From NCBI GenBank assembly GCA_025924215.1, contig JAICEJ010000003.1, positions 1 to 38,580 on the forward strand: a stretch of 38,580 bases of DNA. Direction: 5' to 3'. This document shows positions 4,581 to 33,205 of the stretch, in pieces. Below the pieces are notes generated by a model. That model was not told where the DNA came from, did not search any database, and was given only the letters and a program-made list of their open reading frames with translations. The position numbers and the translations under genes are program-made. Positions within the stretch are counted from its first letter, which is position 1. Each line of letters starts with the position of its first letter. This DNA is from Candidatus Binatia bacterium (GTDB lineage Bacteria > Desulfobacterota > Binatia > UBA9968).

Positions 4581-4596
4581 TGGCATCTTCGTTGCA
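4581..4596 (+). promoter_or_regulatory. sigma54 -24/-12 promoter
   Basis: TGGCATCTTCGTTGCA (GG-N10-GC), 41 nt before ATG 4638. Confidence 0.8.
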
Positions 4597-4637
4597 CAGA
4601 GCTTGCTACGCCACACAGCCTTATACACAGTGGACTC

Positions 4638-5399
4638 ATGCTGAGACCGATAGAGAGCCTCAAGAATTTTTCGATCGGCGCTAATGATGGCGAGATCGGA
4701 AGGGTAGTAGAATTTTTCTTCGATGACGACAAGTGGACGATCAGATATCTGGTTGCCGACACCGGAGGTTGGCTGAGCGGCAGAAAAGTGCTGATCTCGC
4801 CGATCTTCTTCGGCGCGGTGGATTGGGACGGCGAGGTTTTCAACGTCAACCTTACCCGACAACAAATCGAAAATAGCCCAAGCATCGACACCGATAAACC
4901 GGTGTCGCGCCAACAGGAGAGCAGCTTTTATGACTACTACAACTTTCCCTATTATTGGTTGAGTGCGGGGCTAACAACTCCAGCGGCGGTTGATCCTAGC
5001 GCAGCTACACCAGCCCCAAGCGGTCCGGAGGCCGCGGCGTTGGGCCAGCAATCGGATTTCGAGGACATTCATTTGCGTAGCACCAAGGACATACTCGGCT
5101 CTTATATTGAAACCACCGATGGCGACCTTGGCCATCTGGAGGATTTCATCATCGATGATCAAACCTGGGTAATCCGTTATCTGCTGATCGATACGACAAA
5201 TTGGTGGCCAGGTAAGACAGTGCTGATCTCGCCGGAATGGGTCAAGGACATGGTTGAGGCCGATTCGAGAGTCTACGTCGATCTGACCCAGGAACAGATA
5301 AAAACTAGTCCGCAGTACGATGAGACAACCGTTCTCGATCGTGACTACGAGTCGCGTCTCTACCAACATTACGGCCGCTCACGGTATTGGAGCGACTAA
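4638..5399 (+). CDS. Tandem PRC-barrel domain protein
   Basis: Two repeats of (A/T)xDG(E/D)(I/L)GxV/Lx(E/D)FxxDDxxWxIRYLxxDTxxWxxG(R/K)xVLISP...(V)xLTx(Q/E)QI, each followed by a Y-rich tail. Confidence 0.9.
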   Translation: MLRPIESLKNFSIGANDGEIGRVVEFFFDDDKWTIRYLVADTGGWLSGRKVLISPIFFGAVDWDGEVFNVNLTRQQIENSPSIDTDKPVSRQQESSFYDYYNFPYYWLSAGLTTPAAVDPSAATPAPSGPEAAALGQQSDFEDIHLRSTKDILGSYIETTDGDLGHLEDFIIDDQTWVIRYLLIDTTNWWPGKTVLISPEWVKDMVEADSRVYVDLTQEQIKTSPQYDETTVLDRDYESRLYQHYGRSRYWSD

Positions 5400-5472
5400 A
5401 AAATACTCCCCGGCCACCCATCGCAACGCCAAAGCACCGATCAGAGTGGATTCAAAAGCAGGAGAAGCAAGT

Positions 5473-7032
5473 ATGAACACAGCATGGGAGTGGAACGATA
5501 TCAATGAGCAAAAGGCTAAACGGCGTTTCGGCATCAAACGTTATCGCGCCGGCCAGCGCAAGCTCATTCAGGCGGTCCTGGAGAGAAGGAACGCTTTGGG
5601 GGTATTACCTACCGGGGGCGGCAAATCGCTTTGCTATCAATTGCCTGCTCTGTTTCTTCCGCGTGCCGTTTTGGTTGTCTCTCCTCTGATCGCGTTGATG
5701 CAGGATCAGCAGGAGAAACTCGTAGAACGAAGCATTCCTGCCGTTGAGTTGAACTCGACGCTAAGCTCAAACGAAGAACAGGAAAACATCGATACCGTTC
5801 AAAGCGGACAAACAGAGCTGATCTACGTCACTCCGGAACATTTGGAGAATGCAGGATATCTCAAGATTCTAAAAAAGGCCGGTGTGTCACTGGTGGTCGT
5901 CGATGAAGCCCATTGCGTTTCGCAGTGGGGCCATGACTTTCGCCCGGCTTACCTGTCACTGCGTAATGCGATCCGAGAGCTCGGGCATCCTCCGGTGCTG
6001 GCTTTGACAGCGACAGCCACTGACGAAGTCGCGACAGATATATTAAAGCAGCTTGAGTTAACCGACCCAGAGGTGATCAGTATCGGTATCGAACGAAAGA
6101 ATGTCGCTTTCGAGGTCGTTCGTACCGTCAACGAGGACGTCAAAAGAGATCGGCTCAAAGAAATTCTACGGGAACAGTCCGGCGGCGCCGGGATAATTTA
6201 TGTGCCCACCGTGAAACAGGTCGATGCTCTATGCCAATGGTTGATCGAGGAAGGATTTCGCGCTGGCCAGTATCATGGCCGGATGAAGACACCGATGCGC
6301 GAAACCAACCAACAGGCGTTCATGGCCAACGAGATCGATGTGATGGTCGCAACCAAGGCGTTCGGTTTGGGCATTGATAAGCAGGATATTCGTTTTGTCA
6401 TTCACTATGCGGTTCCGGACTCCATCGAAACTTATGTGCAAGAGACGGGACGCGCGGGGCGCGACGGCGAGCCGGCCCGGGCGATACTGTTCTATCGGCT
6501 TGAGGATCGCCGCGTTCAGTCCTACTTTCTCGGCGGCAAATATCCGCGTCGAGATGAGTCCTTGGCGCTGTATCGGACATTGGACCAAATGCCGCAACCA
6601 GAAGATTTGGGGGACCGAACTACCGAGCAATGGCTGGCCGAGGTTACCGATCTGACCGAGAAACGAGTCAAGGTTATTCTCGCGCTCTTGGAAAGCACGG
6701 GAATAATACAGCGCAAACCTCACGTGAGCAAAATCCGTGACTTCAACACCGATCAGGAGTTCGCCGCGTTTCTCGAAGAATACGAGCAGCGTCATAACGG
6801 CGACCGGCAACGTTTAGACGCAATGATGCTTTTTGGCCAGATTACCACCTGCCGAATGCGTTATCTGCTCGACTATTTTGACGAGGAGGTCGATGGCGAT
6901 TGCGCTCGCTGTGACAACTGCCGCGCTGGACAGGAAGCGACGGAAAACAGTTTCAGAGACGCCTCTTTATCCGGCGCAATCAAACAGGCACCGTCATCGT
7001 GCGGAATCGGCGCCGCTGTGGCGAATTCTTAA
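5473..7032 (+). CDS. recQ: RecQ-family ATP-dependent DNA helicase (short form, no HRDC)
   Basis: PTGGGKS, DEAHCVSQWGHDFRPAY, LTATA, QETGRAGRDG and the C-terminal Zn site CRMR...CARCDNC. Start moved to ATG 5473 after AGGAG. Confidence 0.92.
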   Translation: MNTAWEWNDINEQKAKRRFGIKRYRAGQRKLIQAVLERRNALGVLPTGGGKSLCYQLPALFLPRAVLVVSPLIALMQDQQEKLVERSIPAVELNSTLSSNEEQENIDTVQSGQTELIYVTPEHLENAGYLKILKKAGVSLVVVDEAHCVSQWGHDFRPAYLSLRNAIRELGHPPVLALTATATDEVATDILKQLELTDPEVISIGIERKNVAFEVVRTVNEDVKRDRLKEILREQSGGAGIIYVPTVKQVDALCQWLIEEGFRAGQYHGRMKTPMRETNQQAFMANEIDVMVATKAFGLGIDKQDIRFVIHYAVPDSIETYVQETGRAGRDGEPARAILFYRLEDRRVQSYFLGGKYPRRDESLALYRTLDQMPQPEDLGDRTTEQWLAEVTDLTEKRVKVILALLESTGIIQRKPHVSKIRDFNTDQEFAAFLEEYEQRHNGDRQRLDAMMLFGQITTCRMRYLLDYFDEEVDGDCARCDNCRAGQEATENSFRDASLSGAIKQAPSSCGIGAAVANS

Positions 7033-7108
7033 ACTCTTTTTTCTGCTGGGCAGCTTACCCTGATTTCGCTGTGGTTCAGGTTTAGAACCTGACCAGATTT
7101 CCAATCAG

Positions 7109-8709: not shown

Positions 8710-8875
8710 ACGATTCCTAAAGTAAGTTTCAATAAAAAAAGCCGCTATTCAGCGCCGCTGTGTGTGAGTGCTGCTCGCATGACACGCAAAAAGAAAATGG
8801 CCGAGTGTTTTGTCGGCCTAAGGATTCCTAAACAGCGCGAGATTGCAGCAGAGGCAGAAAAGAAAATCGATGTTC

Positions 8876-9163
8876 TCAATTATTCCGCAACGAACTCGAT
8901 TCGCGAAACTCAGCAAGAGCCTGGTTACCGTTATCGTAGAGGGCGTCATAAAAAACGCCGCCGGTCTCATCTTGGTCGGCCTGGTTAAACGCTTGGCTGT
9001 TTTTCAACAATTGACGACGCCGTTGCAAATAAGTGTTCGTGGGCCAGCGCCAAGGGGATGTCGTCAAATTCTCGCCATCATATCGAGCCCCATTAACTTT
9101 ACTTTGACCAAATACTAATTGCCAAAAACTCTGTTCTTCCCACCTGACGCGTTGCGACTTCAT
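8876..9163 (-). CDS. Hypothetical protein, 95 aa
   Basis: Near-ideal RBS AGGAGGTG before ATG 9163 and its own sigma54 motif upstream; family not recognised. Confidence 0.65.
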   Translation of the reverse strand: MKSQRVRWEEQSFWQLVFGQSKVNGARYDGENLTTSPWRWPTNTYLQRRRQLLKNSQAFNQADQDETGGVFYDALYDNGNQALAEFRESSSLRNN

Positions 9164-9224
9164 GATCGCACCTCCTGTGCATCGACAAGATTAAAGCTGC
9201 GCAGCTGTAACTTGTAACCGCAAA

Positions 9225-9240
9225 GGCAAAACATATTCCA
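9225..9240 (-). promoter_or_regulatory. sigma54 -24/-12 promoter
   Basis: TGGAATATGTTTTGCC on the minus strand, 61 nt before ATG 9163. Confidence 0.65.
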
Positions 9241-9300
9241 GCCAAGACGCTTTTTCAATATACCAAATACATTGGCGAAACCGACAGCATCGATGAGTGC

Positions 9301-9360
9301 TGTACTACTGTTGGGACGGTCTCCGTGAAAAGACGCACTGGGTGTGCCAAATCCGACACA
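9301..9360. promoter_or_regulatory. Putative enhancer palindrome pair
   Basis: TGTACTA-CTGT-TGGGACG (9301) and TGTGCCA-AATC-CGACACA (9343), 42 bp apart. Confidence 0.5.
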
Positions 9361-9387
9361 CTTACTGATGAGGTACTAACGCCAGGA

Positions 9388-9834
9388 TTATAATTCGTAC
9401 GGGGACCTAACCTTCGCTCTATCTTCGTTCGGAGCCGAGCGTGAAGGCAGACTGCGTCCAGAAACTATCTTATTTGCGTAGTCCCGCGCCAGGGCAACTC
9501 CGGCTGCTGTGGCTATGCTCCGAAGGATTCCGCCGCCGGCGGCTTTCTGTTTGCCTTCCAGGTAGGCGCGCCGTTCGGGATCGATTGAAAACTTGCGCCC
9601 TCGCCCTCGGGGTGGAGCTTTTCCGAAAATGATGCCTTCAAACAAGTAGCCCGTTGCCACTGCCAGGCCGACCATCAGCCATGGTCGCTTTTGCGTCTGG
9701 TACTTGGGGTCAACCGTACGTTTAGCTTCCTGTATGGCATCACCGACACGTGCTTCAAGCGTCTCGATTTTTTCTGCCATAGCGGCGCGGGTAGCTTCAA
9801 TTTCTCGTCTAATCTCATTCTTCGATGGTTCCAT
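9388..9834 (-). CDS. DUF3618-domain protein
   Basis: N-terminal EIRREIEATRAAMAEKIETLEARV followed by RPWLMVGLAVATGYL. ATG 9834 after AAAGGA. Confidence 0.8.
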   Translation of the reverse strand: MEPSKNEIRREIEATRAAMAEKIETLEARVGDAIQEAKRTVDPKYQTQKRPWLMVGLAVATGYLFEGIIFGKAPPRGRGRKFSIDPERRAYLEGKQKAAGGGILRSIATAAGVALARDYANKIVSGRSLPSRSAPNEDRAKVRSPYEL

Positions 9835-9888
9835 CTGACATCCTTTGCGTTTTGCCCTCGTTGCTGTTCGTACTACCGACCGTAGCAA

Positions 9889-10257
9889 CTATCGTCGTAC
9901 TTTGCGGGCGAGCAATAAACCACTGACGACGCCGACGATCAGCGATGTTACCGGATTTTGACGTATATACCTTGTCGCCTTATCGATAAGTTGTTCGTAC
10001 TGCCTCTCCCTAAAATAAGCTCCACCCCGATCCAGCCTATCGGCGATAGTCTCTGCCGTGCTGTGCACGACAGCCTCCACCCGAGGCCCTGTTTGCCTTA
10101 CTCGTTCCGCGGCGGTCTTCATTTGATCACCGACCTTGGCCGCAGTACGACGAGCAGCCTCGGAGGCCTGCTCCCTTGCAGACCCAGCACGCTCACCGAC
10201 CTGAGATGCAAGATCTCGTACTTTATCCGATACTCTGTCTGAGCCGTTGTGTTCCAT
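9889..10257 (-). CDS. ElaB/YqjD/DUF883-like tail-anchored stress protein
   Basis: Ala/Glu/Arg-rich amphipathic helices and the C-terminal YIRQNPVTSLIVGVVSGLLLARK anchor; RBS GGAGG. Confidence 0.85.
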   Translation of the reverse strand: MEHNGSDRVSDKVRDLASQVGERAGSAREQASEAARRTAAKVGDQMKTAAERVRQTGPRVEAVVHSTAETIADRLDRGGAYFRERQYEQLIDKATRYIRQNPVTSLIVGVVSGLLLARKVRR

Positions 10258-10409
10258 GTTAGCCTCCGCCTTTCACTTCAAACATTTAAATGTCTTCTAT
10301 CAAACTCGCGACTTGAATTACCAGCGTATACCATTACATGCTTCTAGCAATTTTCATAGGCGTGCCGTCCGGGAGCAACCGCCGGCGTTGTATAGAGCGA
10401 CCTACGAAG

Positions 10410-10425
10410 CGCAAAAGCCATTCCA
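10410..10425 (-). promoter_or_regulatory. sigma54 -24/-12 promoter
   Basis: TGGAATGGCTTTTGCG on the minus strand, 152 nt before ATG 10257. Confidence 0.6.
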
Positions 10426-10459
10426 ATGCGAGCACCAACTCAGTACCAGTCCCCGACCG

Positions 10460-10475
10460 TGGCATAGCGGTTGCA
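10460..10475 (+). promoter_or_regulatory. sigma54 -24/-12 promoter
   Basis: TGGCATAGCGGTTGCA, 26 nt before ATG 10502. Confidence 0.8.
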
Positions 10476-10501
10476 CATCTCTGAGGCCGCGGGGGACCTA
10501 T

Positions 10502-10666
10502 ATGAAAAATGATACACGTGTACCTGAACGCAAAGACATCGACAATACAGAGTTCCCATGTCGTTCGTGCGGTGAAAAATTTAATTCGTTGGTGGAAGCA
10601 GAACAGCATGAAAAGGATTGTCGCAACCGAGAAACTTCAGGAGCTAAACCTGCCGAGCGAGAGTGA
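10502..10666 (+). CDS. 54-aa micro-protein with a C2H2-like (CCHC) zinc finger
   Basis: FPCRSCGEKFNSLVEAEQHEKDC = F-x-C-x2-C-x3-F-x8-H-x3-C. RBS GGGGGA, and a sigma54 motif directly upstream. Confidence 0.7.
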   Translation: MKNDTRVPERKDIDNTEFPCRSCGEKFNSLVEAEQHEKDCRNRETSGAKPAERE

Positions 10667-10739
10667 GTTTTTCGCGCCGCTGAGATCTCGAAACGAACTG
10701 GTACCCCTGACCTTTGATCTATTGGATCGGAGACACTTG

Positions 10740-10788
10740 TGTGCCGATTTCAAGACATGGCACTATATTTTGCGGCACTTCCGGGACG
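10740..10788. promoter_or_regulatory. Putative enhancer palindrome pair
   Basis: TGTGCCG-ATTT-CAAGACA (10740) and TGCGGCA-CTTC-CGGGACG (10771), 31 bp apart. Confidence 0.5.
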
Positions 10789-10830
10789 GTGAAATTTGTG
10801 TCAGCCGATACTAATCGCCTTAAATACCTC

Positions 10831-10846
10831 CGGTATGTCGATTGCT
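10831..10846 (+). promoter_or_regulatory. sigma54 -24/-12 promoter
   Basis: CGGTATGTCGATTGCT, 39 nt before the csbD ATG. Confidence 0.65.
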
Positions 10847-10885
10847 CCTATCGGACAACGAATAAAGCTATAAAGGAGGCCTGTC

Positions 10886-11083
10886 ATGAACTGGGATCAA
10901 ATGAAGGGCAACTGGAAGCAATTCAAAGGAAAGGCTAAAGAACAGTGGGGAAAACTTACCGATGATGAATTAGATCAGGTCGAGGGCAAGCGCGACCAGC
11001 TGGTCGGTAAGATTCAGAAGCAATACGGTTTGAGCAAGGAAGAAGCCGAGCGCCAAGTCGGTGATTGGGAACGCAGGCTATAA
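10886..11083 (+). CDS. csbD: CsbD/YjbJ family general stress protein
   Basis: MNWDQMKGNWKQFKGKAKEQWGKLTDDEL...GKRDQLVGKIQKQYG; RBS AAGGAGG. Confidence 0.97.
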   Translation: MNWDQMKGNWKQFKGKAKEQWGKLTDDELDQVEGKRDQLVGKIQKQYGLSKEEAERQVGDWERRL

Positions 11084-11122
11084 GCAAGTAGCGCAGAGTG
11101 GCGTACTTGTGTATTCCTAACC

Positions 11123-11165
11123 ACGGCGGTCATCGGCTGTGTAGCTCGATGGCCGCCGTTTTATT
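11123..11165 (+). terminator. Rho-independent terminator after csbD
   Basis: ACGGCGGTCATCG...CGATGGCCGCCGT stem (one G-U pair) followed by TTTATT. Confidence 0.7.
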
Positions 11166-11214
11166 GCGATCAGATTCAAAGACAACTGCAATCCTGTAAA
11201 CGAAGGGCGCATGC

Positions 11215-11970
11215 ATGGCCGACAACTTGATTCACATCGCCGCTATCGCCGACCTCCATTGTAAAAGTAATTTCGCCGGCAAATTCAGAGCGCTCTTTTC
11301 CCAAATCAGCGAAACCGCCAATATACTGTTGCTGTGCGGTGATTTGGTGGATTACGGCTTGCCTGAAGAAGCTCACGTGCTGGTAAAAGAATTAAGCGAC
11401 CTCACTAAACGGATCCCCGTCATCGCTGTGATGGGCAATCACGAGTTCGAGTCCGGCAAGATCGACGAGGTGCAAAAGATACTGACCGATGGCGGCGTTC
11501 TCCTGCTTGATGGCGAGGCATGCGAGATAGAGGGGATCGGCTTTGCTGGGGTCAAGGGTTTCGCCGGCGGCTTTGGCGAACGGCTGCTTGCGCCTTGGGG
11601 CGAGGCCATAATGAAGAGATTTGTGCACGAGGCTGTGGACGAAGCCCTAAAACTCGAATCGGCCTTGGCCAAGCTGCGCACGACGCATCGCATCGCTTTG
11701 CTGCACTACTCGCCGATCGCGGCGACAGTTATGGGAGAACCGCTGGAGATTTATCCCTTTTTAGGGTCGAGCCGGCTGGAGGAGCCGTTAAATCGATTTT
11801 CCGTAACCGCTGCCTTTCACGGTCATGCGCATCATGGCGTCCCTGAAGGAAAAACCAAAACCGGTGTGCCGGTTTATAACGTCGCCATGAAACTTCTCGA
11901 GTACAGTTTTCCCGGACAACTCCCCTACCGCATTTTGAATCTACCCCGGGGCAACGGATCCCCCAAATGA
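11215..11970 (+). CDS. Calcineurin-like metallophosphoesterase
   Basis: Metal-binding motifs ADLH, GDLVD, GNHE, LH and GHAH. Confidence 0.92.
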   Translation: MADNLIHIAAIADLHCKSNFAGKFRALFSQISETANILLLCGDLVDYGLPEEAHVLVKELSDLTKRIPVIAVMGNHEFESGKIDEVQKILTDGGVLLLDGEACEIEGIGFAGVKGFAGGFGERLLAPWGEAIMKRFVHEAVDEALKLESALAKLRTTHRIALLHYSPIAATVMGEPLEIYPFLGSSRLEEPLNRFSVTAAFHGHAHHGVPEGKTKTGVPVYNVAMKLLEYSFPGQLPYRILNLPRGNGSPK

Positions 11971-11983
11971 AAGGCTGATCACC

Positions 11984-12781
11984 GTGCAAACCCCGCCTGA
12001 ACAGAAACTGAACCACGTCTTTTATCGAGACGTTTTAAATATTGTGCGACACGCGGAAATACCGTTTCTAATCAGCGGCGGGTTTGCGCTGCAACATTTC
12101 ACCGGCATTCAAAGAGAGGTGAGAGATCTGGATATCTTCGTACTCGAAAAGCACGTTCATGCGGCGCTCGAGGCGCTTGCCGAAGCTGGCTATCCGACCG
12201 AGCTGACATTCTCGCATTGGCTCGGCAAAGTTTATAACGACGGTCGGACCGAGTACGTCGATCTGATTTTTAGCTCGGGCAACGGACTATGCAAAGTCAC
12301 CGAGAGCTGGTTCGAGCGCGCCGTCCCCAGTGAAGTGTTCGAGATGCCGGTTTTTCTCTGCGCTCCCGAAGAAATGATCTGGCAGAAAGCGTTCATCATG
12401 GAGCGGGAACGCTATGACGGCGCCGATGTCGCCCATCTGATCCGTACGCAAAGCGATGCGATAGATTGGAAACGGTTAATCGGCTTGTTTGGCGATCATT
12501 GGCGAGTGCTTCTGAGTCATGTGATCTTGTTTGAGTTCATCTATCCGACCGAGCGGGCGAAAATTCCTCGCTGGGTGAAGCATAGGCTTATCGTTTTGCT
12601 CCAAAGGGAGTTCGGCGAATCGTTTACCGACGAACAGGTATGCCAGGGACCGCTTCTTTCCCGTTCACAATTTCGCGTTGACACGGAACATTGGGGCTAT
12701 AAAGACGCCCGTTTGAACATCATGTCAGCGGACGAGGTAGCGCATTGGACGAAAGCCGCGGAGGAAAAAGAAAAGCCTTAA
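11984..12781 (+). CDS. Pol-beta superfamily nucleotidyltransferase (uncharacterised family)
   Basis: SGGFAL...RDLDIF (GG plus DxD), a third acidic residue in YVDLIF, and a conserved K...D helix (WQKAFIMERERYDGADV). Confidence 0.85.
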   Translation: MQTPPEQKLNHVFYRDVLNIVRHAEIPFLISGGFALQHFTGIQREVRDLDIFVLEKHVHAALEALAEAGYPTELTFSHWLGKVYNDGRTEYVDLIFSSGNGLCKVTESWFERAVPSEVFEMPVFLCAPEEMIWQKAFIMERERYDGADVAHLIRTQSDAIDWKRLIGLFGDHWRVLLSHVILFEFIYPTERAKIPRWVKHRLIVLLQREFGESFTDEQVCQGPLLSRSQFRVDTEHWGYKDARLNIMSADEVAHWTKAAEEKEKP

Positions 12782-12813
12782 TCACCAGTGTTCATTCAGT
12801 CGCTAAGCTGTTT

Positions 12814-14391
12814 TTAGCGCCCTTTCCTGCCGCCGACTTCGATCTCCCGTTCCAACCCGGGAAGAATCGCTCTGAAGAAAGCGTTTTGCACAAGGCCCAG
12901 GATTATGTCGGTCACGCTGGTTTGCGGATCTGAAAGGTTGCCGGAAATTTTGGTCGTGGTAGCGATCTCCTCGCGCGGACGATTCTCCAGAATCCAGGAG
13001 AGCCCCCCTAAAATGCCTTCGTAGAGTTTAGTGAAGATCCCTTTCTTACGATCTTGTTTCGGATCGTAAACGTCGACGTCCTTGAACAATGGTTTGACGT
13101 AGCCGTTGATCGATCCATCACGCACCGCGATCTCTGAGTAGAAGGAGAACTGGCCGGCGACAACGTCGGCGCCAACATAGGCTCTGAGCAAAGGATTGAG
13201 GGCTTTGAGCTCCGACTGATCGATGGCTAATTGCAGGTCGAAGTTGGGGCTCTTCCCTTTGGGTCTCAAGCGCGCCACCAGACGAGTTTTTCCCGAATTC
13301 ATAAATCTGCCGCTTGCTGTGATCGTCGCGGTGCCCTCTTCGCCTTGATTACTGAGGTTTTGAATTTTGACTTGGGCGCCAGTGACAAACAACCGGTACT
13401 GGGGCTCGCTTGCCTTATTGACAATTCCCAACTCGCTGTCGCTGATATTGACGTCGTTGACGTCCAATTCAAGGGTAGGCTCGTTGCTGTGCTCTCGAAT
13501 GACCTTATCTGCCTTTTTCGACAGTTCCTTGGTGGGAGAAGTCGCGGGCTTGGTATGCACGTAATCCGCCAGCAGATTTTGGACGTTGAGCGTTGGCACG
13601 CTGAGAATTTTTTTGTTCTTCGCGTATTCGATAGTACCGGTGGTGCTAAGTACACCGCGACGGACTGAGAAATTGTAACGTTCCGTTATAGGCCTGAAAT
13701 AATCCAGCTCGATTTGATTTGCCTGAATTTCTGCCTTGATGGCAATATGCGGTTCCGCAAGAAAGTCCGCGTTTCCCTGAAGGACAATTTTGCCATTCTT
13801 AAATACAGTTCCGTCAATATAAACCTCCGACGGATATTCGCCTTCTTGAGAAATGACGTTACGAATATTATAAGCCGTGACGTTAACATTGGTGAGTTCG
13901 AGCGGACGGTACTGGCCTTGATCTACATAGGTAAGCTCGCCACCAGTAATGACCAACTCGTTGATCTTGAGCGGGTAGATAGCCTGCACCGCATCCTGCC
14001 AGCCTCGCTCTTTTATCGGAGTTTTATCTTTTATTTCGTTCTGGGATTGCTTGAAGTTGAGAAACAGCTTCGGGTTGTTTATTTCGAAATCCGCTACCAC
14101 GTGGCCGGAGAGCAAAGCTCTCCAGTTAACGCTGGCGGTCAAATTCGGTATTTCCGCAACGGCGGGTTCGGGGTTGGCGTCCTGTGTGATAACTGAATTT
14201 TCGAGATCCAGACTAAATCCGATCGGGTGAAAATCCAGCTTTTCGATTCGGACGGTATAGCCTTTTAATGCCGCGTTGATCTTGGCTTCCGTCCGGCGGC
14301 GTAACGGTTCATCAAGGAAAAAGGCGGCGATAAATACTAATACGACAAGCGAACCGAGAATGGCTGCGAGCCAAACTAGACCCCTTTTCAT
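12814..14391 (-). CDS. DUF748 (AsmA-like) membrane-anchored protein
   Basis: N-terminal TM anchor, repeated beta-rich segments, and the C-terminal GQFSFYSEI...GYVKPLFKDVDV...ATT..ISGNLSDP...LVQNAFFRAILP. Confidence 0.8.
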   Translation of the reverse strand: MKRGLVWLAAILGSLVVLVFIAAFFLDEPLRRRTEAKINAALKGYTVRIEKLDFHPIGFSLDLENSVITQDANPEPAVAEIPNLTASVNWRALLSGHVVADFEINNPKLFLNFKQSQNEIKDKTPIKERGWQDAVQAIYPLKINELVITGGELTYVDQGQYRPLELTNVNVTAYNIRNVISQEGEYPSEVYIDGTVFKNGKIVLQGNADFLAEPHIAIKAEIQANQIELDYFRPITERYNFSVRRGVLSTTGTIEYAKNKKILSVPTLNVQNLLADYVHTKPATSPTKELSKKADKVIREHSNEPTLELDVNDVNISDSELGIVNKASEPQYRLFVTGAQVKIQNLSNQGEEGTATITASGRFMNSGKTRLVARLRPKGKSPNFDLQLAIDQSELKALNPLLRAYVGADVVAGQFSFYSEIAVRDGSINGYVKPLFKDVDVYDPKQDRKKGIFTKLYEGILGGLSWILENRPREEIATTTKISGNLSDPQTSVTDIILGLVQNAFFRAILPGLEREIEVGGRKGR

Positions 14392-14435
14392 AAACAGAAA
14401 ATGGCGTCACATCGCCAGTGGCATTCAGTTAGCGA

Positions 14436-14588
14436 TCATAGACGGCCCATCAACACGAGGATGATGATAATTAATAAAATTAGCCCAAGACCGCCGCTAG
14501 GATAATATCCCCAACCGCCACTGTAGGGCCATGTGGGAAGAGCTCCGATAAGCAAGAGTATTAGAATGATGATAAGAATAGTGCTCAT
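14436..14588 (-). CDS. DUF3309 family small membrane protein, 50 aa (not in ORF track)
   Basis: MSTILIIILILLLIGALPTWPYSGGWGYYPSGGLGLILLIIIILVLMGRL; RBS GGAGGA. Confidence 0.92.
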   Translation of the reverse strand: MSTILIIILILLLIGALPTWPYSGGWGYYPSGGLGLILLIIIILVLMGRL

Positions 14589-14659
14589 GTGTTGTCCTCC
14601 ACGGGTGCTATACAGACTCGATCATCCCTCTCGTACTTGACTGATACTACTCCGGTTGG

Positions 14660-14692
14660 CCGTGGCGCGCTTATCGACGCGCCACGGGTTTT
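14660..14692. terminator. Intergenic hairpin (terminator or mRNA-stability element)
   Basis: CCGTGGCGCG-N8-CGCGCCACGG, a perfect 10-bp stem; the T-run is only on the plus strand. Confidence 0.45.
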
Positions 14693-14758
14693 CAGAACCA
14701 ATCGTTTATCAAGCTGCCTAGCGGGATCACGCCTTGTCGGCCGTTTCTCCGTTGCATC

Positions 14759-15511: not shown

Positions 15512-15577
15512 GTTGATTCCTCCTCTTTGTTGAACAATCAAGATGGAAACCCGCTTCGATCGCACTAAGGTAAGTAG

Positions 15578-15593
15578 AGCAAGCGATATGCCA
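15578..15593 (-). promoter_or_regulatory. sigma54 -24/-12 promoter
   Basis: TGGCATATCGCTTGCT, 66 nt before ATG 15511. Confidence 0.8.
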
Positions 15594-16611: not shown

Positions 16612-16659
16612 CTATTTGCCCCTTATCTGATTATCGTTGCCGTGTCTTCATTACACAAA

Positions 16660-16675
16660 CGCAATGCAAATGCCA
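16660..16675 (-). promoter_or_regulatory. sigma54 -24/-12 promoter
   Basis: TGGCATTTGCATTGCG, 48 nt before ATG 16611. Confidence 0.8.
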
Positions 16676-17627: not shown

Positions 17628-19238
17628 CTAGTTGCGGCGAATGTCCGCAGCGGCTTCCGCTGTCACATTGGCTGGTAAGGTCAAGTGGAAGGTGGTGCCC
17701 TTGCCTACTGTGCTGGCATAAGAAACTACGCCATCGTGCGCAAGGATAATTTGCTGCACAATGAACAACCCCAGACCGGTACCGTGCGGCTTTGTCGAGC
17801 TGAACAGATCAAAGACCTTCAGATCATCGGGAATACCTATACCGGTGTCACTGATATCGATGCAGATCGAGCCGCCGCTCAAGTATCCCTTTACTGACAA
17901 AGTGCCGCCGTACGGCATCGCCTCTACGGCGTTTTTAAAAAGATTGAGTAACGCCTGTTTGAGTTTTGCCCCGTCGCCGCGGATTGGCGGCAGATCCGGC
18001 GAGCACTCCCACATAATCTGAACGTCCCCTTTGCCGTCCATATCCAATCCCGAGATCGTTTCTTGAACGACGCTGGCGAGCTTCACCGGCTGAAGACTAA
18101 GTTTTTGAGGTCGCGCAATCGTTTTGAACTCGTTCAGCAGAGAAGTAAGCCGGTCGATCTCGCTCTTCAAGTCCTTCAACGTCGCTAACATGTGCGGCGG
18201 AGCTTTGATGCCCTCTCGACTGATAAATCGCTCCAGCAGTTGGACCGTCGTGGAAATGCCGTTCAGCGGATTGCCAATCTCATGAGCCAGCATGGATGCC
18301 GCGGTTCCAATCGCCGCCAGATGTTCCTTTTCCCTTAACTTCTCTCGCAGATTTCGTTCCTGCGAGTCATCGCGCAACAAAATCAAAAATCCCTGCAAAC
18401 CGTCGGCATCGTCACGTAGCGCAAAGACGATGACCCTAGCATAAAACTGTGAGCCGTCTTTGCGCACCAACAGTTGGTAGTCGCGAAATGTTCCTTGATC
18501 ACTCGCCTCATCAAGCGCCTTTTTTATCAACGCCTGTCTGCCTTCCTGATCGGCGAAGAAAACCGACAACCGCTGGTCCGCCATATCATCACTCTCGCGG
18601 CCCAGGATGCGGGTTGCGGTGCGGTTCCAGTCAACGATGCGGCCATCGGCATCGGATATCAGAACCGCGTAATTTGTGATGTTGCGGAGCAAATTCCCGA
18701 GGATTTGCTCGACCTGCTTGCGTTGCGCCTCCTCGTGCTGAAGCTCCTCGGTTTTCGACATCAACTCGGATGTTTGTTCGATCACGCGCTGCGCCAAACG
18801 CTGATTTAATTCGAGAATAATCTTCTCCGCCTCGTTGCGTTCGGTAACTTCTCGAATCACTTTTACGACGTAGGCGCCCCTATCAGTTTGCAGAAGCGTG
18901 CATGTTGCTTCCGCGGCAAAAAGCGATCCGTCACGGCGGCGATACTGCCATTCACCGCGCCAGCAGCCGTTTTGCTCGATGTCGGGAATCGAGGTTTGAT
19001 AGATACGATCGAACCAATTCTTGTCGAGGTACAGCCGTTCGGTGGTCTGTTGCAAGACCTCCTGAGCCGAATAGCCAAACAACAAGGTTGCGCCCTCATT
19101 CCAGTAAACGATACAGCGCGACTTGAACTCGATAACGATGATCGCCTCAGGAATCCCTTTGTACAGTGACACCAGGACGTTCTCATCGAGAGGCGGCGGA
19201 CAGGTTTGGCTATGAATTGCTGGTTCGTTGGCAGACAT
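17628..19238 (-). CDS. Cytoplasmic PAS-PAS sensor histidine kinase (NtrB/AtoS-like)
   Basis: Two PAS domains; H-box LAHEIGNPL, N-box NLFKNAVEA, G boxes DTGIGI and STKPHGTGLGL; no TM segment. Confidence 0.93.
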   Translation of the reverse strand: MSANEPAIHSQTCPPPLDENVLVSLYKGIPEAIIVIEFKSRCIVYWNEGATLLFGYSAQEVLQQTTERLYLDKNWFDRIYQTSIPDIEQNGCWRGEWQYRRRDGSLFAAEATCTLLQTDRGAYVVKVIREVTERNEAEKIILELNQRLAQRVIEQTSELMSKTEELQHEEAQRKQVEQILGNLLRNITNYAVLISDADGRIVDWNRTATRILGRESDDMADQRLSVFFADQEGRQALIKKALDEASDQGTFRDYQLLVRKDGSQFYARVIVFALRDDADGLQGFLILLRDDSQERNLREKLREKEHLAAIGTAASMLAHEIGNPLNGISTTVQLLERFISREGIKAPPHMLATLKDLKSEIDRLTSLLNEFKTIARPQKLSLQPVKLASVVQETISGLDMDGKGDVQIMWECSPDLPPIRGDGAKLKQALLNLFKNAVEAMPYGGTLSVKGYLSGGSICIDISDTGIGIPDDLKVFDLFSSTKPHGTGLGLFIVQQIILAHDGVVSYASTVGKGTTFHLTLPANVTAEAAADIRRN

Positions 19239-19455: not shown

Positions 19456-19471
19456 TGGCATGCTCGTTGCG
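19456..19471 (+). promoter_or_regulatory. sigma54 -24/-12 promoter
   Basis: TGGCATGCTCGTTGCG, 25 nt before ATG 19497. Confidence 0.8.
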
Positions 19472-27529: not shown

Positions 27530-27530
27530 T

Positions 27531-27842
27531 CTAAGATTTGCCTAACTGAAGGTTATTGACCACCTTCTTAACACCGTCAACCCGACCCGCTAATTGCTCG
27601 GCCCGCGCTTTCTGTTCGGCGCTTTGTACCGTGCCGTTTAAGTAAACCACGCCGTTTGTGGTATCGACATCGATACGAGTAAAATTCGACGCCTTGTCGG
27701 ACGTCAATGTGGCCTGTACCGCAGTCGAGATGCGCGCGTCGTCAACATTTTGCCCAGCCGTTCGCCCGGTCATCGCTTGACACCCGGAGAGTGCGACAGC
27801 TAGGAGCGCTACTGCGGCAAAATGTCTACTCGGTTTCTTCAT
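27531..27842 (-). CDS. BON-domain (OsmY-like) lipoprotein
   Basis: Own RBS AGGAGG and ATG 27842; lipobox LSGC; VDDARISTAV...IDVDTTNGVVYLNGTV...VDGVKKVVNNL. Confidence 0.9.
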   Translation of the reverse strand: MKKPSRHFAAVALLAVALSGCQAMTGRTAGQNVDDARISTAVQATLTSDKASNFTRIDVDTTNGVVYLNGTVQSAEQKARAEQLAGRVDGVKKVVNNLQLGKS

Positions 27843-28244
27843 TGTGATTCCTCCTGTTTTTTGTTCATTCTTCTGGTGATTAGCAAAACACTCGACCAGC
27901 CGGCGCAACTCGTCCAAGTGAAACGGCTTGCCTAGCACTCGGTCACATCCGGCAGCGATCCAGAGATTTTTCTCCCGAATTGAGCCCATCGCCGCCATGG
28001 CTATCACCGGGATATCGGTGAAGCGCGAACCGCTCTTGAACTCGCTAAGCAACGAAGAAGCTCCACTGCCTGAAATCGTTACGTCGAGCAATATCAAATG
28101 GGGCCTTTGCCGCTCGAGCTGTAGCCAAAAATCCTCCTGGCTGTTTGCTGCCGACGCGCGCCAACCGCATAGCTCCAAGTACTTCACGATAAGTTCGAGA
28201 AGATCCTGATTTTCCTCGACGACGAGGATGCGAAAAGATTTCAC
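27843..28244 (-). CDS. Degenerate receiver (REC) domain that reads in-frame into the BON gene
   Basis: GTG 28244 after GAGGTG; ILVVEEN, LILLD, PVIAMAA (no Thr/Ser) and GKPF; no stop codon before the BON start. Confidence 0.7.
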
Positions 28245-28487: not shown

Positions 28488-28643
28488 GGCTTTATCCTCC
28501 TCCGCGTATTAGGCGGGTTTGAAAAACACAATATTAAACCGTTCTCGTGTTGAAGCTGTTCGTGCTTTCAGAAATTTCCCTTCTACATTCTCGTAAGCCC
28601 AAGAATCCCGGTGACGATTAAGTAAATAGCCACGACATAATTC

Positions 28644-28659
28644 AGCAATCTGGGCACCA
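28644..28659 (-). promoter_or_regulatory. sigma54 -24/-12 promoter
   Basis: TGGTGCCCAGATTGCT, 156 nt before ATG 28487. Confidence 0.55.
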
Positions 28660-28736
28660 GCAAAATAAGGATTCCGGCAATCAAGGCGATCAGCGGCTGC
28701 AAGGAAATGTAAAACTGCATCGATGATTCTCCTTCG

Positions 28737-30066: not shown

Positions 30067-30291
30067 TTAGTAAATGATCGATCCTCTTTCTATTTGCTTT
30101 TTGCGATCTTCATACTCTTCGCGCGATATTCTTCTTTTTTGGAAATCTTCATCCAAGCGATCCATCTGCCGTTTCGCCTGTATCTCATAACCCGCGCCCG
30201 TGGCCACCGCTCCAGTCGCTGCTCCACCAAGAAACGCACAACTCGATTGTGTTAGCCCCAATAACGCCAGTAATAGTAAATAATTTCGCAT
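30067..30291 (-). CDS. Small lipoprotein with a SHOCT-like C-terminus, 74 aa
   Basis: MRNYLLLLALLGLTQSSC, Gly/Ala stretch, ISREEYEDRKKQI; RBS AAGGAAGG. Confidence 0.75.
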   Translation of the reverse strand: MRNYLLLLALLGLTQSSCAFLGGAATGAVATGAGYEIQAKRQMDRLDEDFQKRRISREEYEDRKKQIERGSIIY

Positions 30292-30334: not shown

Positions 30335-30350
30335 AGCAATGGATGTGCCA
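30335..30350 (-). promoter_or_regulatory. sigma54 -24/-12 promoter
   Basis: TGGCACATCCATTGCT (full TGGCAC-N5-TTGC consensus), 43 nt before ATG 30291. Confidence 0.85.
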
Positions 30351-30422: not shown

Positions 30423-30472
30423 CGTCTTGAAAGTGGAACAAACTGAAAGCCAATTAGCGCAGTTGTGGGACG
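30423..30472. promoter_or_regulatory. Putative enhancer palindrome pair
   Basis: CGTCTTG-AAAG-TGGAACA (30423) and TAGCGCA-GTTG-TGGGACG (30455), 32 bp apart. Confidence 0.5.
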
Positions 30473-30694: not shown

Positions 30695-31252
30695 TTACGG
30701 TCTTCTCGTGCCGGCTCCGGAACCGCCCCACGTAAAACCAACGCCGATATTGAATATATGGTTGCCATTGTCCGATTCATTATTGATGCGCTCGAACTTA
30801 TCCCAAAACCATTCGTACCGGTAACCAAGATTTACGAAAGTCTGTTCATGAACGAATAGTTTGACACCGACCTGGGGGCCCAGAGTTCCGGTGATGTCGT
30901 CATCGTTCCACGCTGCACCAATGAAAGCGCCGAGATAGGGAACGATGATGTCGGTCACTCGAAAATGATAATTAATGAAAGGCGCGGTCGTGGCGATCCA
31001 TTGATCACTGGCATCGTCTACGAAGAGGTAATTGAGCGCCTGTCGAAAGCCTAATTGCCATCCTGGACTGAGATAATACCCATAGCTCAAATCCAAGTTT
31101 AAATTGCCGAAGTCAGTATCTTCGGCATGAAAAAATCCGCCCGATACTTGAAGCTCACTAGCGCCCTGTCGGGGTGCGGCAGCGACAGGCGCAACTCCAG
31201 CGAGCGAACTGATCAAAGCCCAACTCACTAGAGACAGGAAAACTTTTTTCAT
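30695..31252 (-). CDS. Small outer-membrane beta-barrel protein
   Basis: Signal peptide; alternating amphipathic strands (YGYYL, VPYLGAFIG, LGYRYEW, FNIGVGFTW); RBS GGAGGT. Confidence 0.85.
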   Translation of the reverse strand: MKKVFLSLVSWALISSLAGVAPVAAAPRQGASELQVSGGFFHAEDTDFGNLNLDLSYGYYLSPGWQLGFRQALNYLFVDDASDQWIATTAPFINYHFRVTDIIVPYLGAFIGAAWNDDDITGTLGPQVGVKLFVHEQTFVNLGYRYEWFWDKFERINNESDNGNHIFNIGVGFTWGGSGAGTRRP

Positions 31253-31289: not shown

Positions 31290-31305
31290 AGCAATGAAGA
31301 TGCCA
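31290..31305 (-). promoter_or_regulatory. sigma54 -24/-12 promoter
   Basis: TGGCATCTTCATTGCT, 37 nt before ATG 31252; 14/16 identical to the 4581 promoter. Confidence 0.8.
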
Positions 31306-31367
31306 ACTCCGCGAAAAGACTAGCGCCTTGTAAATACAGAACTAATACAATGTAAATGCCTTAACGG

Positions 31368-31617: not shown

Positions 31618-31767
31618 TCAGATTGAACTTCGCCCTTGAATCAATTGAATCAACAACACCACCACTGCGATTACCAAAAGCAGATGAATGAAGCCGCCAA
31701 TGGCGTAGCCGCTAACAAAACCTAGTGCCCAGAGAACGAGAAGTACCACGAATATGGTCCAAAGCAT
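31618..31767 (-). CDS. lmo0937-family (DUF5670) small membrane protein, 49 aa (not in ORF track)
   Basis: MLWTIFVVLLVLWALGFVSGYAIGGFIHLLLVIAVVVLLIQLIQGRSSI; RBS AAGGAGG. Confidence 0.93.
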   Translation of the reverse strand: MLWTIFVVLLVLWALGFVSGYAIGGFIHLLLVIAVVVLLIQLIQGRSSI

Positions 31768-31811
31768 GATCGCCTCCTTGGTTTTAACCTTGTTGTATCG
31801 TGGATGCCCAT

Positions 31812-31827
31812 CGCATAGGACATGCCA
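31812..31827 (-). promoter_or_regulatory. sigma54 -24/-12 promoter
   Basis: TGGCATGTCCTATGCG, 44 nt before ATG 31767. Confidence 0.7.
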
Positions 31828-31848
31828 ATAACCAACTGACTCTAACCG

Positions 31849-33114
31849 CTATGCTGAGCCATCTGGATTCGCTAAATCTTTGAGAGTGACCGCTGCCAAA
31901 TTTTCGTGAATGATTGCCTCACGCCTTCGCAGAAATTCTGCTACCGGATCGCTGTTATCGCTGCCGGGATCAGCCGGGCCATGCAGAATGTCGAGAATTT
32001 CCGTTGCCGGTATCTGTTCGGGGGGTCTCGCTAGACTGACGCCGGCGGGCTCGGCGGACCTCAGGACCAAGCCGCGGCCGATGTATTTCTCCAGCAAACT
32101 GTCGAGTTGGTCGGGCGGCACTCCGAGCGCGCGGCTTAAATTTTTTTCCGTTGCCGGAGGCTTGCCGGTAATGAATCGCTGGCCAATCTCACACATCAAT
32201 GTTAAGGCCAATTGTTCTTCAAACAGGTGACCCTGCTTCGCCGCAGCAGCGCCCGGCAGGTAAACCGAGGAGTGTTGATGTAGATAGCCGACTTGGGCGC
32301 CGATCAGGATTACCAGCCAGGCCGCATACAGCCACACCAAAAAGACCACTAGAATCGCGAAGCCCGAATAGATCGCGGCATAGCTCACCGAGTTAACGAT
32401 GAATGCGGTGAAAACGATACTCATCAACTGCCACAGAATTGCCGCCACCCCGGCGCCGATCATCGATGAACTCAGAGGCACGTGCGTGCTAGGCATAAAC
32501 TTATAGAGAAAAGCGAATGCCGCCCAGAGAAATAATAATGGCAGAAAGCGCGTTAGCAGCGCGAACCTGAGGCCAAATACAGTCGTGTCCACCAGCCGTT
32601 GCACGAGCCAGTAACTCTGGGCCGACGCAATCACGGCAAAAGCGGCGAAGATGAGAACCGGACCGACCAATAGCAGCCCCATGTATTCACCGTAGCGTCG
32701 GGTCCAAGTGCGGGATGGCTGTGCTCGCCAGATCTGGTTCAATGCTTCCTCAACCGTGCTTACGAGATAAATCACCGAATAAAATAGCCCTGCGACACCA
32801 ACGGCGCCGAGAACATCGACGCGAGTATTGTCGACGAACCCGATCAAGCGGCGAGTGATCTCAATCCGCTCCGGTCCGAGAGGGGCGAGAGCTTGAGTCA
32901 AGAATGGCTCGATCAACTGCTGAACGCCGAAAGCTTTGAGCACAGAAAACGTCACCGCGAGAAGCGGCACCAGAGACAGCAATGTCGCATAGGTTAAGCT
33001 TGCCGCACGCAAGCCCAGCATATTCTCGTAGTACTTGAGAAAAAGCAGGTGGAAAAATTGCGCGGAACGTATCCGCAGCGGCTTAAGCACCCGCAAAAAC
33101 GAGCGCACTTTCAA
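31849..33114 (-). CDS. YihY/BrkB (UPF0761) membrane protein with a C-terminal winged-helix-like extension
   Basis: RAASLTYATLLSLVPLLAV, ALNQIW, YAAIYSGFA...LVWLY..W..IL.GAQV; start uncertain. Confidence 0.9.
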   Translation of the reverse strand: MKVRSFLRVLKPLRIRSAQFFHLLFLKYYENMLGLRAASLTYATLLSLVPLLAVTFSVLKAFGVQQLIEPFLTQALAPLGPERIEITRRLIGFVDNTRVDVLGAVGVAGLFYSVIYLVSTVEEALNQIWRAQPSRTWTRRYGEYMGLLLVGPVLIFAAFAVIASAQSYWLVQRLVDTTVFGLRFALLTRFLPLLFLWAAFAFLYKFMPSTHVPLSSSMIGAGVAAILWQLMSIVFTAFIVNSVSYAAIYSGFAILVVFLVWLYAAWLVILIGAQVGYLHQHSSVYLPGAAAAKQGHLFEEQLALTLMCEIGQRFITGKPPATEKNLSRALGVPPDQLDSLLEKYIGRGLVLRSAEPAGVSLARPPEQIPATEILDILHGPADPGSDNSDPVAEFLRRREAIIHENLAAVTLKDLANPDGSA

Positions 33115-33189
33115 GCTTCTCCCCGGTGCGGATTAGGCAATCGACGCGCGGCGCAACTATGCCTCAGATAGAACATAAGAGGGAGAAGC

Positions 33190-33205
33190 GGCAAAAAATA
33201 TGCCG
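33190..33205 (-). promoter_or_regulatory. sigma54 -24/-12 promoter
   Basis: CGGCATATTTTTTGCC, 75 nt before the YihY ORF. Confidence 0.7.

Follow-up and report, generated by a model that had tools for sequence, protein, structure and literature searches.

The stretch of DNA analysed here, referred to as the window, is the whole of contig C3 (38,580 nt; GenBank JAICEJ010000003.1) of the Candidatus Binatia bacterium assembly GCA_025924215.1 (G000; 5.31 Mb, 745 contigs). It carries small genes, several of them of families known from general stress responses, that are preceded by TGGCAC-N5-TTGC-like elements resembling sigma-54 promoters (Table 1). A preliminary description of this sequence had listed 13 such elements as the promoters of one sigma-54 regulon, forming a stress island. 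Gene starts and open reading frames were called with our own simple, crude caller (86% of the genome called coding), and protein families were assigned by Pfam and NCBIfam profiles; the whole analysis is a sequence-based prediction. The profiles recovered the CsbD, BON, DUF1328 and lmo0937-family genes named earlier (for 31618-31767, NCBIfam NF033488 at 61.9 bits, cut-off 30), while the genes named elaB/yqjD and yflT-like (the latter the 259-aa gene) matched none. The zinc-finger-like product of 10502-10666 gave sub-threshold matches only against Pfam. The congener set used for comparison consists of two close genomes, G004 and G006 (~90% DNA identity), and three more distant ones, G002, G007 and G003 (67-76% identity in coding DNA).

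Table 1. Genes, predicted sigma-54 promoters and candidate enhancer sites of the window
Feature	Position	Strand	Motif, score or profile	Conservation and remarks
Topoisomerase IB (bacterial)	window		Pfam/NCBIfam	
Alpha-amylase-family enzyme	1094-2704		profile match	
Single-domain response regulator	3884-4261	-		
Sigma-54 type promoter of response-regulator gene 3884-4261	4276..4290	-	TGGAAT-N5-TTGC	5/5 congeners, -28 to -30 from start codon
Enhancer palindrome between divergent response-regulator and PRC promoters	4478..4495	.	CGTCGCATTTTCGACACA; 12.4 bits	matrix trained without window
Weaker second enhancer site	4512-4529			34 nt closer to PRC promoter
Sigma-54 promoter of PRC-barrel gene 4638-5399 (Pfam PRC)	4581..4595	+	exact match	
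RecQ; PLD-type enzyme	window		Pfam/NCBIfam	
Sigma-54 type promoter of 95-aa gene 8876-9163 (no family match)	9226..9240	-	TGGAAT-N5-TTGC	kept 5/5 congeners
Two enhancer sites	9301-9318, 9343-9360	.	9.7, 13.1 bits	-78, -120 from 9226 promoter
Sigma-54 type promoter of 9889-10257 (sub-cut-off YtxH/MT0933-like matches)	10411..10425	-	TGGAAT	kept G004, G006
Sigma-54 promoter of 54-aa zinc-finger-like gene 10502-10666	10460..10474	+	exact match	kept G004, G006
Candidate enhancer site	10740..10757	.	11.2 bits	-91 from CsbD promoter; similar in G004, G006; weaker support than others
Sigma-54 type promoter of CsbD gene 10886-11083 (Pfam CsbD, 79.1 bits)	10831..10845	+	CGGTAT-N5-TTGC	
Metallophosphoesterase; nucleotidyltransferase; AsmA/DUF748 protein	window		Pfam/NCBIfam	
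Sigma-54 promoter of 250-aa secreted repeat protein gene 14759-15511 (no family match)	15579..15593	-	exact match	kept G004, G006, G003
Two enhancer sites, 31 nt apart	15687-15704, 15718-15735	.	9.5, 14.4 bits	-111, -142; matrix trained without window
Sigma-54 promoter of 259-aa gene 15832-16611	16661..16675	-	exact match	kept 5/5 congeners
Two enhancer sites, 33 nt apart	16777-16794, 16810-16827	.	12.7, 8.1 bits	-119, -152
PAS histidine kinase	17628..19238	-	Pfam	no adjoining response regulator
Consensus sigma-54 motif before ASRT-family gene 19497-19868 (Pfam ASRT)	19456..19470	+	exact match	doubtful or recent
TamA/TamB	window		Pfam/NCBIfam	
Sigma-54 promoter of eight-gene minus-strand unit	30336..30350	-	exact match	kept G004, G006, G002, G007; G003 contig ends there
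Order of the unit: lipoprotein 30067-30261, M48 peptidase, DUF5666, DUF3096, DUF1328, REC-BON, 124-aa open reading frame, AI-2E transporter	ends 26013	-		
Two enhancer sites, 32 nt apart	30423-30440, 30455-30472	.	10.6, 8.9 bits	-90, -122
Sigma-54 promoter of outer-membrane beta-barrel gene 30695-31252 (Pfam OMP_b-brl)	31291..31305	-	exact match	kept 5/5 congeners
Sigma-54 type promoter of lmo0937-family gene 31618-31767	31813..31827	-	TGGCAT-N5-TATGC	kept G004, G006, G003; 2 mismatches in G007
Sigma-54 type promoter of BrkB/YihY-family gene 31849-33108 (Pfam Virul_fac_BrkB)	33191..33205	-	CGGCAT-N5-TTGC	kept 5/5 congeners
Very large GAF/PAS hybrid histidine kinase	33421..38580	-	Pfam	runs off contig

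Examination of the window located all 13 elements, those on the minus strand starting one base later than had been given (9226, not 9225). The proposed consensus YGGYAY-N5-TTGC is matched exactly by nine of the 13, the exceptions being 9226 and 10411 (TGGAAT), 28645 (TGGTGC) and 31813 (TATGC at -12). The GG and GC doublets of these TGGCAC-N5-TTGC-like elements lie exactly 10 nt apart, which is the geometry of a sigma-54 promoter, and every element points into the adjacent gene, with 26-157 nt from GC to start under our own start-codon choices (25-156 nt in the preliminary description). Twelve of the 13 are intergenic, as all had been said to be. The minus-strand element at 28645..28659 (TGGTGC-N5-TTGC), which would have served DUF1328, was rejected because it lies inside a 45-aa DUF3096 gene (28583-28720; Pfam 66.3 bits, cut-off 23.3), carries two mismatches and is not kept in G002, G007 or G003; transcription of DUF1328 from the 30336 promoter, together with its neighbours, is more likely. 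Eleven of the 13 hold up, the ASRT motif at 19456 being kept in the closest relatives only, and one promoter, at 4276 on the minus strand, had been missed. In total, the analysis shows at least 12 predicted -24/-12 promoters (consensus TGGCAT-N5-TTGC) at distances of 26-153 nt from the small genes that they precede.

Comparison with shuffled sequence revealed a strong excess of the motif. The window holds seven exact copies of TGGCAY-N5-TTGC (0.22 expected), 18 with at most one mismatch (5.26 expected) and nine exact copies of YGGYAY-N5-TTGC (0.67 expected), and none of 100 shuffles reached any of these counts; a loose TGGCAC-N5-TTGC pattern with up to two mismatches was not enriched in the window (42 against 37.8 expected). 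The density of exact sites is 0.18/kb, tenfold that of the 5.31-Mb genome (0.018/kb, 95 sites), so the enrichment predicted earlier was found against both backgrounds. Of the 95 exact genome sites, 75 are intergenic, though intergenic DNA makes up 13.7% of the genome, and 59 face a gene no more than 250 nt away; of 391 sites with one mismatch but intact GG and GC, 107 lie between genes, 75 of them directed at a gene. The unconstrained positions are biased as well, with T favoured at the second spacer position, C at the fourth, and A never following the GC, a pattern that a genuine sigma-54 consensus would show. The same motif precedes classic sigma-54 targets, namely a PII gene on C61 and, on C424, a pilin gene that adjoins one for an enhancer-binding protein, both named from their N-termini. 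These features support the view that the window motifs behave as sigma-54 promoters.

The promoters were then compared across the genus, in which the window region is syntenic. Orthologs were located by tblastn in the syntenic stretches and 300 nt upstream of each were scanned, where a site with at most one mismatch has a chance of ~0.02 on one strand (shuffle rate). Among the listed sites with an ortholog and upstream DNA in G002, G007 and G003, 21 of 27 are kept, and the misses are confined to the ASRT motif (0/3) and 28645 (0/3). Retention was 3/3 for the response-regulator, 95-aa, 259-aa, beta-barrel and BrkB promoters, 2/2 for the lipoprotein promoter, 1/1 for the PRC, CsbD and 250-aa promoters, and 2/2, one with two mismatches, for the lmo0937-family promoter. 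Over the ten specified positions of the motif, cores in these three genomes are identical to G000 at 221 of 240 positions (92%), a figure inflated by choosing the best match per region, whereas the anchored flanks agree at 554 of 1916 (29%). Predicted promoters have been held constant while the remaining intergenic DNA was randomised, and exact-word footprinting between lineages found little beyond promoter and ribosome-binding site.

Individual promoters follow this pattern with some variation. The PRC promoter is an identical 16-mer with differing flanks in 4/4 close relatives, one of which has 81% protein identity, and it is present in G003 with a different spacer. The CsbD promoter reads TGGTAT/TGGTAC-N5-TTGC in G004, G006 and G007. 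Before the G002 and G007 orthologs of 9889-10257 the sigma-54-like site is another one, located at -51; in G000 the 10411 promoter probably serves 9388-9834 as well. No ortholog of the zinc-finger-like gene was found in the fetched stretches of G002, G007 and G003. The ASRT motif is kept only in G001, G004 and G006 and is absent before the orthologs in G005, G002, G007, G003, G018, G019 and G020; the G005 protein is 94% identical, with its upstream DNA replaced, and the gene looks like a recent recruit to sigma-54. The added 4276 promoter is invariant in an alignment of five sequences. Its GC is only 14 nt from the ATG, so that the mRNA would be leaderless or nearly so, and the same 14-nt distance occurs in all five congeners, which is unusual for a sigma-54 promoter. 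The eight-gene unit behind the 30336 promoter is a probable operon, judged solely by strand and short gaps. A further candidate at 16923, before a DksA/TraR-type gene, was rejected as not conserved.

To describe the upstream regions, we searched for shared enhancer sequences. Exact k-mers, exact dyads and one-mismatch k-mers gave nothing above shuffles, and a 10-mer found three times in the window (CTGAGATGCA) was dropped as a separate motif since it overlaps weak half-sites. Expectation-maximisation recovered an 18-bp palindrome, TGTCnCA-N4-TGnGACA, upstream of the sigma-54 promoters. With 25 upstream regions (window promoters plus G002 and G003 orthologs) it returned TGTCyCA-N4-TGrGACA at a log-likelihood of 84 (32 shuffled), and with 130 G000 upstream regions the same motif at 150 (16-21 shuffled). 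At 10 bits or more, the matrix from the same set matches 51 of 127 sigma-54 upstream regions (40%) and 52 of 2133 regions of other genes; in a two-fold held-out test the figures were 32/127 (25%) against 101/4266 controls (2.4%), and at 12 bits or more 14/127 against 14/4266. The held-out enrichment over control upstream regions is thus 10- to 33-fold. Most occurrences of the palindrome fall at -50 to -130 relative to the -24 element.

A matrix trained without the window matches six window promoter regions. Clear upstream sites occur at the divergent PRC/response-regulator pair, the 95-aa, 250-aa and 259-aa genes and the lipoprotein operon, with a candidate at CsbD and weak or no sites at the others. 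Sites tend to come in pairs 31-34 nt apart, and pair positions are conserved in three lineages: both 259-aa-gene sites recur with equal spacing in G002, G007 and G003, and the lipoprotein-operon pair is kept at -92 and -124 in G002 and G007. Sites related to those at 9301-9360 are present in G002, G007 and G003, and the 4478..4495 palindrome falls within a block conserved in all five aligned sequences. The beta-barrel gene has no strong enhancer in G000 and weak sites in G002, G007 and G003, and the BrkB gene has weak conserved half-palindromes at -45 to -87. Two candidates were set aside: a presumed promoter at 9335-9349 is the right half of the 9343-9360 enhancer site, and a 12.0-bit enhancer match for 9889-10257, 209 nt upstream and inside the zinc-finger gene, was not trusted. 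Among the 51 enhancer-positive G000 promoters, 20 are GT/GT, 14 TT/TT, 15 mixed and two unclassified on one side, with the window sites mostly GT or mixed. The enhancer appears to split into two sub-types that match two paralogous activators.

The genome contains one rpoN (TIGR02395, 445.6 bits, cut-off 277), in line with the preliminary proposal, and, besides one fragment, 18 full-length enhancer-binding proteins. Most belong to the NtrC response-regulator type; one is PspF-like in shape, with AAA+ and HTH domains only. The best candidate for the activator binding the palindrome is the product of C243:2317-3669 (Response_reg 102.6, Sigma54_activat 225.7 and HTH_8 49.2 bits; GAFTGA at residue 218), which we infer from the palindromes and promoter of its own gene. 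The gene is preceded by GGGCAC-N5-TTGC and the palindrome TGTGTCTCAAATGAGACACA. Upstream of its ortholog in G002 and G007 the DNA is otherwise different but contains a CGGCAY-N5-TTGC promoter and two palindromes spaced ~33 nt. Protein identity is 100% in G004/G006 and 96% in G002/G007, where neighbouring proteins reach 55-80%. In G004 and G006 its gene lies ~65-76 kb from the window island on the same contig.

Among homologs of 70-74% identity, seven were examined. In G018, G160, G020 and G152, GT-type palindromes lie 70-100 nt upstream of a sigma-54 promoter; in G024 and G161 the palindrome is downstream of a one-mismatch promoter-like site, and G162 has neither. At 64-65% identity, G164 shows the same upstream arrangement, while G010 and G019 have palindromes and no promoter was found. 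The family pattern holds without G018. Homologs of 61-66% identity form the group of the C637 paralog, which is 61% identical to C243, adjoins a histidine kinase and has a near-identical recognition helix. In most of them a TGGCYT-N5-TTGCT motif is followed by TT-type palindromes (TTTCnCA-N4-TGnGAAA), which lie 38-48 nt from the start codon. The placement of a palindrome between a sigma-54-like motif and the start codon, seen at C637:1398-1415 and in homologs (L162, L163, L214, L218, L219, L222, L226-L229), suggests auto-repression or a downstream enhancer. In G006 a C637-type gene lies ~2 kb from the DksA-BON/HPF cluster. Genes reading as glycogen/trehalose enzymes stand beside the C243 activator (C243:3875-7203), at the start of the window (1094-2704) and behind a sigma-54 promoter on C299 (1-1371), a possible link to compatible-solute synthesis; only 1094-2704 was profile-scanned, the others being named from N-termini.

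Analysis of the genome outside the window indicated that the regulon is widespread. Sigma-54 promoters there precede genes whose N-termini read as CsbD, hemerythrin, catalase, Hsp20, Usp, HPF, DksA, dodecin, DUF2267, GlgX and PII. Forty genes with both promoter and enhancer were scanned by Pfam, which identified two CsbD proteins, BON, a long catalase, Holin-X, SDR, a START domain and a phosphoribosyltransferase; a DksA-BON fusion, an S30AE-cold-shock fusion, the C243 activator itself, hemerythrin, dodecin, DUF2391, DUF2267 and a DksA/TraR zinc finger; and DUF2934, a receiver, an AMP-binding enzyme, PaaA/PaaC-like, rubrerythrin/ferritin-like, DUF5661, Usp and CBS proteins. All three CsbD-domain genes that the family search located in G000 (C3, C70, C14) have a sigma-54 promoter. 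In G004 and G006 further loci of the regulon are found on different contigs, so the regulon is genome-wide and the single stress island proposed earlier was not borne out. Across the class, CsbD domains occur in 50 of 120 other genomes. In 80 of 83 prepared CsbD upstream regions (two sub-cut-off matches and one second domain were dropped), the sigma-54 motif with at most one mismatch was present in 33 in sense and two in antisense orientation, 31 of the 33 lying 43-96 nt before the domain; counts by family run from 13/16 down to 0/5.

Several gene products of this set are unusual in themselves. A DksA/TraR zinc finger is fused to BON (C223:3798-4571), an S30AE (HPF) fragment to a cold-shock domain (C223:1722-2330) and, in the window, a receiver to BON among stress genes (27531-28244). 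Very small Cys/His-rich zinc-finger-like proteins behind sigma-54 promoters (window 10502-10666, C30:13303-13509, C104:6778-6978, C728:1076-1270 and C448:2408-2557) may be small regulators.

The sigma-70 family of the genome comprises RpoD, two RpoD-like proteins (505 and 511 aa; C365, C342) that reach no equivalog cut-off, an RpoH-like protein and ~10 ECF-size proteins. No sigma factor reaches the NCBIfam cut-offs for RpoS (best 252.5, cut-off 378.7) or SigB/F/G (best non-RpoD score 117.8, cut-off 234; RpoD itself 132.7). Two longer ECF-like (Sigma70_r2) proteins contain no receiver domain, no dedicated EcfG/PhyR model having been run. On C590 (749-2919), an exact sigma-54 promoter and an enhancer site stand before a 73-aa gene. 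The RpoH-like gene follows on that strand ~900 nt further downstream, beyond an intervening open reading frame of opposite orientation; this could be a sigma cascade.

We consider it likely, at a probability of roughly 0.7, that stress-protection genes across the genome form a sigma-54 regulon, and that the window is its densest cluster. Typical general-stress effector families are present in the window and elsewhere; the promoters are of the -24/-12 type and not those of a dedicated sigma-70 family factor. In the proposed mechanism, RNA polymerase with sigma-54 would sit at the promoters as a closed complex, which an NtrC-type response-regulator ATPase bound to the 18-bp palindrome, often at two sites 31-34 nt apart and 50-150 nt upstream, would open. 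Since the C243 gene has the same promoter and palindromes before itself, it would be positively autoregulated, and the C637 paralog probably reads TTTCnCA-N4-TGnGAAA; the two paralogs probably divide the regulon between them. The set would be switched on when one or more histidine kinases phosphorylate the activator; the PAS kinase and the GAF/PAS hybrid kinase of the window are, speculatively, such sensors. The set would then act as a general stress or dormancy response, with sigma-54 and an ATP-driven activator in place of RpoS, SigB or EcfG.

The earlier idea of stress effectors run by sigma-54 and an enhancer-binding protein appears largely right in kind, given the promoters, effectors, shared enhancer and candidate activator, and too simple in its single-activator form. 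The data do not establish the regulon of 13 as one unit: besides the rejected 28644 site and the ASRT motif, a clear enhancer is found at about half of the promoters, and regulon membership is uncertain for about half of them.

A number of observations weigh against the regulon as proposed. No enhancer of 10 bits or more precedes the zinc-finger, ASRT, outer-membrane, lmo0937 and BrkB promoters; 12 of 19 window matrix matches at 9.5 bits or more fall inside called genes, so single palindrome matches are not specific; and the half-site TGGGACA resembles the -24 element TGGCACA. Fifteen of the 40 enhancer-positive proteins match no family. G003, which is 95% complete, has enhancer sites but yielded no close C243 ortholog (best match 61%). 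The two RpoD-like factors of 505-511 aa could still take part in stress control. At class level, the G000 palindrome was found at 0 of 31 CsbD promoters at 10 bits or more; set beside the sigma-54 motif at 33 of 80, this indicates a wide sigma-54 link with an enhancer code local to the family.

In one alternative, the sigma-54 promoters are genuine but answer to several unrelated enhancer-binding proteins and different signals, the unity of stress being an impression created by small unassigned proteins. The genome has 18 full-length candidates for that role, the palindrome is present at only 25% (held-out) to 40% (same-set) of sigma-54 promoters and missing from five in the window, it divides into GT and TT types, and simple k-mer and dyad searches found nothing shared. 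We nevertheless regard it as unlikely: the palindrome is common to the promoters of CsbD, BON, catalase, hemerythrin, Usp and window genes, its held-out enrichment stands at 10-33 times controls, and the two sub-types go with two paralogs whose recognition helices are nearly identical. That the motif is no promoter at all, but the binding site of another protein or a chance or compositional feature, fits the lack of enrichment of the loose pattern and is otherwise hardly credible in view of the exact GG-N10-GC geometry, the sense orientation 26-153 nt from start codons, the intergenic bias and conservation, the occurrence before the PII and pilin genes and the presence of rpoN.

Sigma-54 might also be one layer only, with a sigma-70 family factor (an RpoD-like paralog or an ECF factor) as the main switch and sigma-54 as a second input or part of a cascade as in Borrelia. 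The RpoD-like, RpoH-like and ECF-size factors, and the sigma-54 promoter sharing the small contig C590 with the RpoH-like gene, speak for such an arrangement. In the diverged congeners it is mainly the sigma-54 motif and the ribosome-binding site that are kept, with no other shared block seen (no sigma-70-promoter scan was made, and dual promoters may exist); together with the failure of every sigma factor to reach the RpoS or SigB/F/G cut-offs and the receiver-free Sigma70_r2 proteins, this makes a sigma-70 main switch quite improbable. The sigma-54 regulon reading may extend further. It is possible, if at somewhat short of even odds, that sigma-54 and two autoregulated activators of the NtrC type govern the general stress or dormancy response throughout a class of uncultured soil bacteria, which would add a fourth architecture to those of RpoS, SigB and EcfG.

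General stress responses are run by RpoS in enterics, SigB in Bacillota and EcfG/PhyR in Alphaproteobacteria, and how they are organised outside a few model phyla is largely unknown. The regulon proposed here is like those responses in its effectors (CsbD, BON/OsmY-type, long catalase, Usp, DUF1328, lmo0937-family, Holin-X/YqjE-like, ferritin-like, HPF, DksA-type) and in its many small scattered genes with their own promoters and some clusters; it differs in that its -24/-12 promoters need sigma-54 and an ATP-hydrolysing activator, with no anti-sigma or partner-switch logic implied. EcfG is named in the abstract of PMC7083833. A closer parallel is Nla28 of Myxococcus xanthus (PMC9765219). This NtrC-like enhancer-binding protein is induced by starvation, acts on its own sigma-54 promoter and has a regulon of >100 genes. 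With the system predicted here it has in common a response-regulator activator that controls its own gene, tandem half-sites ahead of numerous sigma-54 promoters and a setting of starvation or stress. The Nla28 half-site is, however, CT(C/G)CG(C/G)AG and not TGTCnCA; its targets are, by the abstract of that paper, mostly metabolic, defence-related and regulatory, and Nla28 serves fruiting-body development. In the text, 'general stress' occurs once and 'universal stress' and 'catalase' nowhere (PMC9765219).

In the sigma-54 regulome of Desulfovibrio vulgaris, many enhancer-binding proteins each have a small regulon (PMC4641369). DVU3305 is labelled there 'general stress response, transmembrane transport', which recalls the present case, but the label covers two operons beside the regulator, whereas ~30-50 promoters share the enhancer here; 'CsbD' is absent from the consulted text (PMC4641369). 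In Borrelia burgdorferi, Rrp2-RpoN-RpoS likewise puts an NtrC-type response regulator and sigma-54 at the head of an adaptive response (PMC2940757, PMC4014564, PMC1976401); by the consulted parts of these papers, sigma-54 drives rpoS and RpoS drives the effectors, whereas here the effector genes themselves carry predicted sigma-54 promoters. No description of csbD or of a general stress effector set under sigma-54 was found in open-access papers and bioRxiv main texts, and 'sigma', 'RpoN' and 'regulat' are all absent from the main text of the Binatota genomic description (PMC8262859).

Without its activator a sigma-54 promoter stays silent, and its firing requires ATP. If the proposal is true, entry to the protected state would be gated by phosphorylation and ATP hydrolysis and not by sigma-factor competition. 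Its confirmation would establish that a widespread soil lineage controls stress protection by a new regulatory design. It would supply a defined code of promoter and enhancer by which the regulon could be read in any genome of the group, name an activator testable in E. coli without culturing the organism, and place about twenty small orphan proteins in a stress regulon.

Further observations concern the window itself. It is colinear with a single G006 contig and split over C22 and C25 of G004 near ~26000, which reflects a rearrangement or an assembly difference. Soil metatranscriptome runs, available as assembled contigs only and possibly including DNA, hold 56-71% of sampled words of 8800-17000; these RNA-library contigs extend over genes with and without sigma-54 promoters and reveal no start sites or expression levels. 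RNA contigs from two studies start at 4624 and 4630, 17-23 nt past the predicted transcription start of the PRC gene, and were not used as evidence. RNA contigs from three runs in two studies diverge from the window at 10774, between the zinc-finger gene and CsbD, with identical 14-15 foreign letters, which mark a strain variant.

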